A DNA stretch of 64,000 nt from Gammaproteobacteria bacterium (GTDB taxonomy: Bacteria > Pseudomonadota > Gammaproteobacteria > DASZBR01): NCBI GenBank assembly GCA_035943935.1, contig DASZBR010000002.1, positions 25,959 through 89,958 of the forward strand, given 5' to 3'. Both the position numbers and the translations under genes were made by a program. The notes beneath the pieces are model-generated. The model ran no database searches. It saw only the letters and a program-made list of their open reading frames with translations, and was not told where the DNA came from. This document shows positions 50,991 to 53,011 of this stretch, one piece after another; position 1 is the stretch's first letter, and the number at the start of each line of letters is the position of its first letter.

Positions 50991-51707
50991 GTGGCAAAAA
51001 TGAAGGTGTTGAATCAGGAGATCACGTTGTATTCCATTAAAGAATCTGACTTTATCTGTATTACTGATATCGCAAGATATAAAAACCCCGAGCATACTGA
51101 TGATCTTATTCGCAGTTGGTTGCGAAACCGTAATACGATTGAATTTCTTGGTGTTTGGGAACAATTAAACAATCCCGATTTTAAACACGTCGAATTCGAC
51201 GGGTTTAGAAAAAAGGCGGGGCTGAATAGTTTTACGTTAACGCCAAAACAATGGATTGAAAATACTGATGCCATCGGGTTGGTTTCTAAAACGGGTCGGT
51301 ATGGTGGAACCTATGCCCATAAAGATATTGCCTTTGAGTTTGCATCTTGGATATCGGTTGAATTCAAACTTTATCTCATCAAAGAATTTCAGCGGGTCAA
51401 AGAAGCTGAACATAAAACATTGGGTTGGGATATTAAACGTAATATCGCAAAATTAAACTATAAGATACATACCAGTGCTGTTAAGAAGCATTTGATTCCC
51501 AAGTTGCTCAGTGCAACGCGTGTTTCGCATATTTATGCCAGTGAAGCAGACCTTTTAAATGTAGCTTTATTTGGACAAACGGCTGCGGAGTGGCGTGCTG
51601 ATCATCCTGGAGTAAAAGGTAACATGCGCGATGAAGCGGATATGGCTCAGCTCATCTGTTTGTCTAACCTGGAAAATCTTAATGCTTTTTTTATTGAAGA
51701 AGTTTAA
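50991..51707 (+). CDS. KilA-N domain protein (phage-derived)
   Basis: N-terminal KilA-N-like domain (ITLYSIKESDFICITDIARYK ... KDIAFEFASWISVEFKLYLIKEF); GTG start 6 nt after AGGAGA; in-frame 24-bp palindromic element at 51182-51205. Confidence 0.65.
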   Translation: MAKMKVLNQEITLYSIKESDFICITDIARYKNPEHTDDLIRSWLRNRNTIEFLGVWEQLNNPDFKHVEFDGFRKKAGLNSFTLTPKQWIENTDAIGLVSKTGRYGGTYAHKDIAFEFASWISVEFKLYLIKEFQRVKEAEHKTLGWDIKRNIAKLNYKIHTSAVKKHLIPKLLSATRVSHIYASEADLLNVALFGQTAAEWRADHPGVKGNMRDEADMAQLICLSNLENLNAFFIEEV

Positions 51708-51828
51708 GTCAATCTGAACGATTGACTAAATTGAATAAGATTGCGATTCACCAGATGACTCTGTTGGTGGATGGGGAACAACGATTGTACGGTGGTCGCC
51801 AACTTAAAAGTGACGCTTCGATCAAGAA

Positions 51829-51860
51829 TTCTAATCCCGTCGAATTCGACGGGATTAGAA
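51829..51860. repeat. 32-bp perfect palindrome TTCTAATCCCGTCGAA|TTCGACGGGATTAGAA
   Basis: Self-complementary; shares the core CCCGTCGAATTCGACGGG with 51891-51922 and 51182-51205. Confidence 0.8.
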
Positions 51861-51890
51861 AATAAGATGGCGCTCTGACGGGCTCTTAAA

Positions 51891-51922
51891 TTTTAAACCC
51901 GTCGAATTCGACGGGTTTAAAA
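51891..51922. repeat. 32-bp perfect palindrome TTTTAAACCCGTCGAA|TTCGACGGGTTTAAAA, overlapping the dapE stop codon; probable bidirectional terminator hairpin
   Basis: Self-complementary; lies between the convergent KilA-N and dapE genes. Confidence 0.8.
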
Positions 51923-53011
51923 CAGTAAAAGGTTTTCTAAAATACTTTCGTAAACTTGAGCTAACTCATCCAACTCAGAAATTTTCACTTTCTCATTAAT
52001 CTGATGAATCGTATCGTTACATACACCCAACTCAACAATCTCTGTTCCTAATGGCGCAATAAATCTGCCATCTGAAGTTCCGCCACTCGTTGATAATTCT
52101 GGCGTAAAACCTAAAGATTTAATTACCGCATCAATGAGTTTGTCTTTGGAGGTTAAGAAGGGTTTGCCAGAATGATTCCAGATGATTTTATAATTTAATG
52201 TATATTTCTTTAAGATACTTTCGAATTTTTCTTGAAGTTGTTCTGCGGTAAAATTGGCTGAATATCTGAAATTACATAATAATTTTAATTCGCCCGGAAT
52301 AACATTGGTTGCTCCCGTGCCTGAATTAATATTAGATATTTGCAAGCTTGTCGTTTCATCAAATTTAAGATTAATTAAGTCATTAAGGGCAGGAATAATA
52401 TTATGTATAGGATTATCCGCTAAATGGGGATAAGCAATATGGCCCTGTTTGCCATGAACAATTAATTCTGCAGAAAGAGTCCCGCGTCGTCCCACTTTGA
52501 CAATATCACCCACTTTATTGGAACTAGAAGGCTCGCCGACTAAACAGTAATCTATTTTTATATTTTTAGTTTTAAAATATTCAACGACTTTGGCGACGCC
52601 ATTTATAGATGGCCCTTCTTCGTCGCTGGTCAGTAAAAATCCAATTGAACCCATATGATTAGGATTATGTTTAATAAAATTTTCGATGGCTATTATCATA
52701 GCTGCGATATTACTTTTCATGTCTTGCGCGCCACGGCCATATAAAAAGCCATTTTTTTCTGTGGCAGTGAAGGGTGGTGAATGCCACTTATCTAATGGCC
52801 CTGTTGGAACGACGTCAGTGTGGCCAAGAAATATAAATAATGGCGCGGATTTGCCGCGTACAGCCCATAAATTTTTAACATCATGAAAGGGCAGATGATT
52901 AATTTCAAAGCCTAGTTTTTGTAATCTATCTGCAATGAGATCCTGGCAGCCATTATCATCTGGCGTAATAGAAGCGAGATTAATTAATTGCTTGGTTAGC
53001 TCGAGAGTCAT
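51917..53011 (-). CDS. dapE: succinyl-diaminopimelate desuccinylase
   Basis: M20 peptidase family, HTDVVP and DMKS metal-binding motifs; start taken at MTLELTKQLINLASITPDD (ORF open to 53050). Confidence 0.85.
   Translation of the reverse strand: MTLELTKQLINLASITPDDNGCQDLIADRLQKLGFEINHLPFHDVKNLWAVRGKSAPLFIFLGHTDVVPTGPLDKWHSPPFTATEKNGFLYGRGAQDMKSNIAAMIIAIENFIKHNPNHMGSIGFLLTSDEEGPSINGVAKVVEYFKTKNIKIDYCLVGEPSSSNKVGDIVKVGRRGTLSAELIVHGKQGHIAYPHLADNPIHNIIPALNDLINLKFDETTSLQISNINSGTGATNVIPGELKLLCNFRYSANFTAEQLQEKFESILKKYTLNYKIIWNHSGKPFLTSKDKLIDAVIKSLGFTPELSTSGGTSDGRFIAPLGTEIVELGVCNDTIHQINEKVKISELDELAQVYESILENLLLF

Follow-up and report, generated by a model that had tools for sequence, protein, structure and literature searches.

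In the window analysed here, a 64,000-nt stretch of contig DASZBR010000002.1 from a Gammaproteobacteria bacterium, a gene of the KilA-N / PDC-S22 family lies between two host genes, one encoding a SIS-domain protein and the other being dapE (succinyl-diaminopimelate desuccinylase), and is accompanied by three copies of one 32-nt palindrome centred on TCGAATTCGA (Table 1). An original prediction, made by reading the sequence alone, had placed two perfect 32-bp palindromes between the KilA-N gene and dapE, the second of them overlapping the dapE stop codon, and a third copy in frame in the KilA-N open reading frame (ORF), where it reads KHVEFDGFR. We confirmed the coordinates and sequences of the perfect pair, which a repeat finder likewise returned as perfect 32-nt palindromes, as well as the in-frame copy and the overlap with the stop codon, finding that the last dapE codon is inside the palindrome too; the description of one and the same palindrome as both intergenic and in-frame coding is thus correct.

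Table 1. Features between the SIS-domain gene and dapE, with positions in the window; L119 is the corresponding locus of a related species. RBS, ribosome-binding site.
Feature	Position	Strand	Details
SIS-domain gene, flanking host gene	50285-50848	+	Pfam SIS_2, E 4.8e-26
Upstream part of cassette, 5' leader and RBS of KilA-N gene	50907-50990	+	65/76 identical to L119 over 50915-50990
KilA-N / PDC-S22 family gene, pseudogene	50991-51865	+	ORF 50991-51707, frameshift, stop of restored frame 51863-51865
Palindrome copy 1	51179-51210		In frame in KilA-N gene, encoding F K H V E F D G F R (codons 64-73)
1-nt deletion site	51701/51702	+	GAAGAA-GTTTAAG in the window, GAAGAAGGTTTAAG in L119
Palindrome copy 2	51829-51860		Perfect 32-mer, 'N..I' stem class, 3' end of restored frame
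Spacer between copies 2 and 3	51861-51890		30 nt, 26/31 positions identical to L119
Palindrome copy 3	51891-51922		Perfect 32-mer equal to the family consensus, 'K..F' class, right end of cassette
dapE, succinyl-diaminopimelate desuccinylase, flanking host gene	51917-53011	-	Pfam Peptidase_M20, M20_dimer

Three palindromes and a frameshifted gene

Neither pattern searches nor a whole-window repeat scan found a further copy of the palindrome elsewhere in the 64 kb, which is the part of the source genome that all copy counts given here cover. The 18-mer CCCGTCGAATTCGACGGG, with up to three mismatches allowed, matches the window at 51186, 51836 and 51898, where 0.03 matches would be expected by chance and none of 100 shuffled sequences gave three, and the 12-nt core GTCGAATTCGAC finds the same three sites against an expectation of 0.21. 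The element has a regular layout, in which a conserved outer block TTTTAA is followed by four or five variable positions that pair, by the invariant core TCGAATTCGA, and then by the mirror image of the whole. Folded as RNA, copies 1, 2 and 3 have predicted energies of -13.2, -23.3 and -20.0 kcal/mol, with z-scores against shuffled controls of -3.3, -7.1 and -5.8 respectively. Copy 1, which has its homologue inside the gene in all members of the family, is asymmetric at two positions (CAC for CCC, and a T.G pair at positions 3/30), and its counterpart in L119 has the canonical CCC. Copy 2 encodes NPVEFDGIRK* in the restored frame of the gene and shows no KilA-N homology in its flanks, while copy 3 supplies the last codon and stop of dapE (51917-51919, minus strand). 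The spacer between them holds CTGACGGGCTCTTAAA, which by eye resembles a degenerate right palindrome arm and is conserved in L119.

The window ORF matches the Pfam KilA-N profile (PF04383) at E 2.2e-22 (79.4 bits, with a gathering cut-off of 23.8), its residues 15-138 aligning to profile positions 11-106 with about 28 extra residues, and the PADLOC model for PDC-S22 (PDLC04962) at E 8.1e-119, with residues 3-237 on positions 6-242 of 281. A close homologue (P0003) matches the same PADLOC model at E 3.4e-131, and the window protein also matches PHROG 2657, a family with the annotation transcriptional regulator. Compared with the intact 288-aa orthologue of L119, which reads ...FIEEGLSQSERL..., the window gene is a pseudogene by a 1-nt deletion, past which the +2 frame resumes the C-terminal motif of the family, LSQSERLTKLNKIAIHQMTLL, and ends at 51865. 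There is a small chance that this frameshift is a sequencing error, although a Logan assembly has the same 238-aa ORF (P0001). Programmed frameshifting at TTTTAAA was rejected on inspection, as the heptamer is out of X XXY YYZ register in the zero frame. In two AlphaFold runs the all-helical C-terminal domain was modelled acceptably (predicted local distance difference test, pLDDT, 72-95), and the best Foldseek match was a weak one to DdrC (E 0.035, TM ~0.3); sequence and profile searches of the PDB returned no matches, nor did searches with Rfam, tRNA and NCBIfam models.

Conservation of the in-gene palindrome

More than 8000 homologues of the window protein, about 272 aa in length and 70-78% identical to it, come from very different phyla, and at E <=1e-30 the family spans 827 clusters at 50% identity in two domains of life. 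The peptide F-K-P-V-E-F-D-G-F-K is conserved in this family, with E68, F69, D70 and G71 invariant in an alignment of 18 homologues (A1). The original prediction had likened the in-gene copy to the palindromic elements inserted in frame in Rickettsia genes (Rickettsia palindromic elements, RPEs), and had proposed to align homologues in search of an inserted VEFDGFRK and to count further copies of the palindrome. Every homologue examined has the same residues at this position, and a recent in-frame insertion is refuted because the conserved residues are present in all of them; the peptide is ancestral to the whole family. The count, for its part, gave only the three copies within 750 nt of one another, all in a single cassette.

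To follow this conservation at the DNA level, 80 homologous loci were fetched, of which 75 were usable, with a locus GC content of 31-66% and representing more than 12 bacterial phyla (Acidobacteriota, Firmicutes, Nitrospirota, Bacteroidota, Verrucomicrobiota, Cyanobacteria, Chloroflexota, Thermotogae, Proteobacteria and others) as well as archaea (Methanoregula, Methanocella, Methanosarcinales and Woesearchaeota). In all 75 the same codons, around nt 199-230 of the gene, form a palindrome of 30-32 nt, whose perfect version TTT AAA CCC GTC GAA TTC GAC GGG TTT AAA encodes exactly the consensus FKPVEFDGFK. In a set of 68 genes the most frequent codon accounts on average for a share of 0.93 at codons 63-73, against 0.50 (maximum 0.88) at 207 other codons (Mann-Whitney p = 1e-7). 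The codons CCC, GTC, GGG and AGA reach shares of 85-97% in the palindrome, compared with an average of 0.37 for other four- and six-fold degenerate codons, and synonymous sites are frozen in codons 63-73 only, the remainder of the gene being saturated. Nothing varies in loop or core, not even the synonymous third base of GAA, the codon used in 100% of genes at this position and in 51-65% at other glutamate codons. The 32-mer of a Staphylococcus aureus pathogenicity island (SaPI), from an AT-rich host, is TTTTAAACCCGTCGAATTCGACGGGTTTAGAA, and those of this SaPI, of Methanoregula (48-53% GC) and of the window are at most one to two positions apart.

Where the element does vary, its two arms change together. 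The 14 pairs of the hairpin give 1050 cells over 75 distinct sequences, and 94% of these are paired, as against 24-66% in slid-register controls, and 5 of the 14 pairs have changed on both sides (75 cells), a result reached by none of 500 shuffles. At the DNA level CCC/GGG is replaced by CTG/CAG, GTC/GAC, CCT/AGG or TCC/GGA, GTC/GAC by ATC/GAT or CTC/GAG, and AAA/TTT by AAT/ATT. Such compensating pairs alter the protein, turning P..G into L..Q, V..H, R..T, S..G or P..R. The mirrored residues 66/71 of 233 homologues are P-G in 152, R-T in 50, R-A in 15, L-Q in five, V-H in four and S-G in three, all of which are partners by reverse-complement codons. Among 109 representatives sharing <=50% mutual identity, reverse-complement-compatible residues occupy positions 65/72, 66/71 and 67/70 in 95, 92 and 80 cases, compared with shuffled means of 53, 35 and 40 and shuffled maxima of 69, 46 and 54, and the pair types number more than 10 (P-G, R-A, P-R, V-H, S-G, G-T, R-T, Y-I and L-Q among them). 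Because the compensating pairs rewrite the protein and synonymous sites of the core are invariant, the comparison indicates that selection acts on the nucleic acid, through pairing and specific sequence blocks, and that the protein follows. The element is a selected nucleic-acid structure integral to the PDC-S22 family, and a clear case of such selection overriding protein sequence, in which mirrored amino-acid pairs obey reverse-complement codon rules across bacteria and archaea.

The nearest neighbours of the family gene, surveyed at 64 loci, are often restriction-modification (R-M) genes, usually on the same strand and with gaps of 0-10 nt; upstream they include N6_Mtase (7), N6_N4_Mtase (5), HsdM_N (3) and Eco57I (3), and downstream Methylase_S (8) and ResIII (6). 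The commonest neighbour families are R-M genes and recombinases, with no RAYT-like gene among them, and recombinase genes adjoin few of the loci. The gene is also found on plasmids, in streptococcal satellite phages, next to rpsR at the integrase end of SaPIs of S. aureus, and as an integrase neighbour in Staphylococcus phage EW. With R-M operons, prophage slots, SaPIs and plasmids as its typical contexts, PDC-S22 is an anti-phage candidate by guilt of association, and in the open-access papers searched a genome survey was all that we found on it.

One canonical KilA protein from phage has the C-terminal domain of the family but not a stretch of about 31 residues that separates the TIEFL helix from the GRYGGT strand, and this stretch is exactly the segment with the palindrome-encoded peptide. 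Being one pairwise alignment at 26% identity, this comparison is only suggestive of the palindrome-bearing segment as an insertion relative to the canonical KilA-N domain. Distances in the KilA-N and C-terminal helical domains correlate poorly (r 0.09-0.32, against 0.50-0.57 within domains), and the family alignment has a domain break at about residues 135-140, which suggests that the two domains have been reshuffled over the history of the family. We rejected the hairpin as a recombination hotspot swapping gene halves, since the N-terminal part and the next segment correlate at r = 0.50 without a break at the hairpin and the distance-matrix break falls between the KilA-N and C-terminal domains (r = 0.23); MaxChi breakpoints are confounded by differing rates among sites. 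A second KilA-N subfamily (motif NYGEF / FNYGEFATIK) has a palindrome of its own, TTTAATTACGGCGAATTCGCCACAATTAAA, centred on GGCGAATTCGCC with the same GAATTC centre (L077 4060-4125, L080 3880-3950, L039 4001-4228), and at these three loci fragments of the second subfamily lie directly upstream of full-length genes.

Cassette history and copies elsewhere

The window DapE protein is identical to one from a Gammaproteobacteria metagenome-assembled genome (P0121), and related loci give both occupied and empty versions of the site. At two of them (L121 and L123, with dapE 84% and 81% identical) the SIS-domain gene and dapE are convergent and overlapping, and there is no KilA-N gene, no palindrome, and no counterpart of the leader at 50907-50990. 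In L119, where dapE is 86% identical, the same site holds a gene for a YopJ-like acetyltransferase and an intact KilA-N gene of 288 aa ending ...GFKPVEFDGFKK*; after it come two palindromes with a spacer of 31 nt between them, the second about 55 nt away from dapE. Homology between the window and L119 spans about 50907 to 51923, and its end coincides exactly with the right edge of copy 3. Copy 1 is identical to its L119 counterpart at 31 of 32 positions and copy 3 at all 32, and the four differences in copy 2 amount to two symmetric compensating pairs (T3C with A30G, and A7T with T26A).

Since the L119 site matches and the empty sites lack all of these parts, the trio of palindromes arrived together as one cassette. 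On this comparison of loci, leader, gene, palindrome, 30 nt and palindrome constitute a single cassette of about 1 kb, inserted between a formerly overlapping SIS-domain gene and dapE in an ancestor shared with the related species. The gene was inactivated later in the present genome, the palindrome trio was kept in both species, and a later deletion in the window fused copy 3 to the end of dapE.

Two observations concern the genomes themselves. At 1-1104 and 5643-6635, L119 carries a YopJ-family acetyltransferase gene (PF03421) and, near it, a gene for a giant ankyrin-repeat protein (~1590 aa), and proteins of both kinds are typical for host-associated or intracellular bacteria. Logan short-read assemblies of the organism and of its relative break at the palindromes (L081, L120 and the 933-bp P0001 contig), L081 ending 24 nt past the dapE stop and L120 about 70 nt past dapE, as repeated 32-mers are breakpoints in the assembly graph.

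Additional copies are found elsewhere both beside family genes and free of them. About 7% of the genome loci have an additional copy, mostly 13-50 nt before a start codon (L042, L061, L077, L080); a viral locus (L117) has two tandem copies in front of the gene, and in L119 and two viral loci (L139 and L142) a copy lies downstream of it. There are also 5' gene fragments that end right after their palindrome (L082, L077, L039). One of these is in Mannheimia phage vB_MhS_3927AP1 (L082 2468-2698), whose annotated 76-aa ORF corresponds to the N-terminal third of the family and stops just past its palindrome, TTTAATTTGGTG GAATTA CACCAAATTAAA; PHROG 32500 (76 aa) appears to be the family of such 5'-fragment genes. 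Two cores 25-55 nt apart occur in 35 viral contigs, about 20 of which have true doublets. Fifteen of the viral doublets stand between a helix-turn-helix (HTH) gene and a RhuM-family gene, and others in the slot beside an integrase. In L085 (2668-2755), as in 14 similar viral contigs, the doublet occupies the space between the HTH gene and the RBS of the RhuM-family gene (PF13310, E 3e-97).

The form TCYAAW-N4-TCGAATTCGA-N4-WTTRGA is present in 52 viral contigs, mostly in intergenic positions; no KilA-N or RhuM gene was found in the fetched loci of these 52, and the 83 ORFs flanking free phage copies include no common neighbour. For the TTTAAW form, the first 118 matching loci gave 35 hits inside KilA-N genes and 46 outside them. 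In cultured Firmicutes phages that do not carry the gene the element is at a single site, by the integrase, after dut or after the lysis genes, and at BLAST sensitivity cultured phages have one palindrome site per genome, with two adjacent copies in StB12. These two (L177 2472-2532, at the genome end of Staphylococcus phage StB12, past its last genes and near the prophage end) belong to different stem classes, one like the in-gene version of phage EW and the other like the SaPI version, and there is no family KilA-N gene. Doublets often mix two stem classes, as they do in the window, StB12, L090/L114, L084 and the RhuM group.

In many intergenic regions of phages the free copies are sharply bounded units of 32 nt, and the conservation of their outer and inner blocks is partly imposed by the search patterns with which the collections were scanned. 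Pairing in their central stem is above chance and includes double changes. As ordinary deletion remnants of the gene they were rejected, the mean homology score of their flanks being -73, compared with -80 for random positions and +56 for in-gene copies; the exception is the pseudogene of L142, whose flanks retain homology to the gene.

Other repeats in the window lie outside the cassette. The 'dispersed repeat' that the original prediction had noted at 50836-50890 was recovered only in part, as 13- and 19-nt matches, falling at the 3' end of the SIS-domain gene (50836-50875), to the arms of an inverted-repeat element at 60745-61337. The arms of that element (60783-60901 and 61182-61300) are 119 nt long and 89% complementary, and it could be like a miniature inverted-repeat transposable element (MITE) or an insertion sequence. 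The stretch 46896-48918 holds a pair of direct repeats (93 and 207 nt, 74-80% identical, about 1145 nt apart), which resemble tandem paralogous genes just upstream of pmbA.

Candidate roles and known parallels

We favour, with a probability of roughly 0.45, the joint explanation that the palindromes are copies of one 32-nt element, the in-gene one under selection, which would act in cis as the site recognised by the KilA-N domain that the same gene encodes. This explanation is preferred because KilA-N and Bro-N are sequence-specific DNA-binding domains of phage and satellite proteins (PMC8096241), because PHROG 2657 is a regulator family, and because the GAA codon and the core are invariant. 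With a site in the gene and extra sites up- or downstream, the protein would bind its own locus and regulate itself, and for the protein the copies in phage DNA would be either targets or decoys; the conserved blocks, about one helical turn apart, would offer sequence-specific contacts, and the paired variable positions would allow a hairpin or cruciform form. The conserved complementarity of the arms suggests that the active form is a hairpin, a cruciform or an RNA hairpin. In phage lambda the ori lies inside gene O and in SPP1 oriL lies inside gene 38, and both would by analogy be precedents for a site inside the gene of its binding protein.

Several observations weigh against a recognition site for the KilA-N domain. 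Many of the free copies are in phages that lack such a gene, and the RhuM-group doublets have no KilA-N gene in the fetched locus; most of the family genes that are embedded in R-M operons have no extra copies. The variable stem of free copies is 55-72% paired, against 88-99% for in-gene copies, and AlphaFold modelled the KilA-N domain poorly in both runs (pLDDT <50). A dimer on duplex DNA, moreover, would not need complementary variable positions, which are a better fit for a hairpin of single-stranded RNA or DNA.

It is possible, though we think it somewhat unlikely, that the element works instead as an RNA hairpin, with a 14-bp stem and an AAUU loop, in the ORF and in 5' and 3' untranslated regions, acting on the stability, processing or translation of messenger RNA; in a variant of this idea the transcript would bind and sequester the protein much as a type III antitoxin does, the free phage copies being decoys. 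Complementarity rather than mere symmetry has been kept, a U.G wobble occupies pair 3/30 on the sense strand in 42 of 75 sequences, the predicted folds are stable, and pairing is best preserved in intact genes. The extra copies are placed for co-transcription, some 13-38 nt before a start codon and abutting the RBS (L117, L085) and others just past a stop codon. Outside pair 3/30, however, C.A mismatches on the sense strand (17) outnumber G.U pairs (7), and a plain hairpin has no need of the strict sequence of the outer and inner blocks or of perfect two-fold central symmetry. No Rfam 15 model matches the window at gathering score, with only generic hairpins below threshold at 50850-52000.

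A bolder extension of the recognition-site explanation, which we regard as unlikely, would make the 32-nt palindrome an autonomous module common to phage genomes and to a defence-candidate gene found across prokaryotes. Recognition by the KilA-N protein would then extend to its own gene as well as to invading phage DNA or RNA, and peptide and site would co-vary as a self-encoded specificity code, with the free phage copies being targets of the protein or decoys against it. If this is true, protein and site could co-vary automatically.

Copies 2 and 3, which separate the convergent KilA-N and dapE genes, might alternatively be intrinsic terminators that work in both directions, a role that is improbable on present evidence and compatible with the other models. 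They have strong stems and stand between convergent genes at a site where the neighbouring genes once overlapped without a terminator, and some free phage copies are likewise between convergent genes or right past stop codons. The original prediction had already raised this role, which is weakly supported at best: copy 2 passes a simple terminator scan on the minus strand, but the other tails are short, with U tracts of 3 nt (GGGTTTAAAA) or none (GGGATTAGAA), and copy 3 is flagged on neither strand. Termination would, moreover, not require a conserved sequence, it leaves the in-gene copy unexplained, and phage EW has an ordinary terminator after the same gene.

We think it still more doubtful that the palindromes are relics without present function, held symmetric by mutational bias in the form of templated quasi-palindrome correction during replication, an established mutational mechanism; in such a model the palindromes would also cause edge deletions and assembly breaks. 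A decay series can be drawn from full genes through the 5' fragments to the pseudogene of L142 with its perfect palindrome, the free copy 2 has undergone symmetric double changes between two species, and the T.G wobble is replaced by C-G in free copies, where the coding constraint is lifted. Correction should, however, affect free and in-gene copies equally, which the difference in their pairing contradicts. The unpairable nucleotides of the loop show no variation at a synonymous site, and relics would leave unexplained both the origin and persistence of the element across 827 clusters and the sharp 32-nt borders of free copies.

A mobile palindrome akin to RPEs, repetitive extragenic palindromic (REP) sequences or MITEs, spreading in this genome and landing in the KilA-N frame, is very improbable, and in this genome we reject a recent insertion of that kind: sharply bounded free units of 32 nt do occur in numerous unrelated phage contexts, and the segment missing from canonical KilA protein would allow an ancient capture, but the peptide is ancestral to the entire family, the three copies in 64 kb are all within one cassette, cultured phage genomes have a single site at BLAST sensitivity without proliferation, no transposase gene is present among the commonest nearest-neighbour families or at the window locus, and the element measures 32 nt against the ~100-150 nt of RPEs.

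Whichever role proves correct, PDC-S22 gains in this element a defined 32-nt handle for the study of binding, regulation and phage targeting, with tractable versions in S. aureus SaPIs and staphylococcal phages (StB12, StB20, SP197 and Pel11 have free copies), and a recurrent palindrome of phage intergenic regions is newly flagged. In practical terms, the element breaks short-read assemblies and can be mistaken in annotation for an inserted repeat or a terminator.

We found no description of the 32-nt element in the open-access literature, and compared it with several known systems. Integron attC sites are imperfect palindromes of 57-141 nt with RYYYAAC/GTTRRRY cores that lie beside cassettes and an intI gene; this identity was rejected, as the element is 32 nt long, has outer blocks TTTTAAA/TTTAAAA that on inspection are unlike attC cores, has a copy in an ORF, and has no intI gene at its locus. 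Sites for dif-like recombination and for HUH nucleases were likewise rejected, the dif core layout being a misfit on inspection and the window locus having no gene for such an enzyme. RPEs, which have many copies per genome and are absent from orthologues, are similar in that a palindrome is both intergenic and in-frame coding, here probably in a segment inserted relative to the canonical domain, but the element is shorter, has three local copies and is present in all homologues examined. The REP/REPIN-RAYT systems, which number hundreds of extragenic copies and have a linked gene for an HUH-type REP-associated tyrosine transposase (RAYT), also have palindromes of ~30 nt, often as doublets 20-60 nt apart and beside a particular gene; they differ in that the window shows no dispersal in 64 kb and no HUH-type transposase gene at the locus, that one copy is inside the gene, and that the element is shared across phyla rather than species-specific. 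With lambda ori in gene O and SPP1 oriL in gene 38 it shares a dyad DNA element inside the coding sequence of a DNA-binding protein, although those are replication origins of several iterons with proven binding, whereas here a single 32-nt palindrome, known from sequence, has conserved arm complementarity.

As to PDC-S22 itself, the window ORF is a full-length match to the model and the family has the same R-M, prophage, SaPI and plasmid contexts; the differences are that the window copy is frameshifted and that the embedded palindrome is undescribed for this system in the open-access literature searched. CapR, of the Vibrio phage satellite PLE, is a protein with a T5orf172 domain and a defined operator in phage ICP1, and related proteins join a KilA-N or Bro-N domain with a homing-endonuclease domain (PMC8096241). 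PDC-S22 has in its place an all-helical C-terminal domain, and the phage palindromes are candidate targets only; still, as a mobile-element protein built on a DNA-binding domain of KilA-N/Bro-N type that recognises a specific site in phage DNA, CapR offers a plausible model for PDC-S22.

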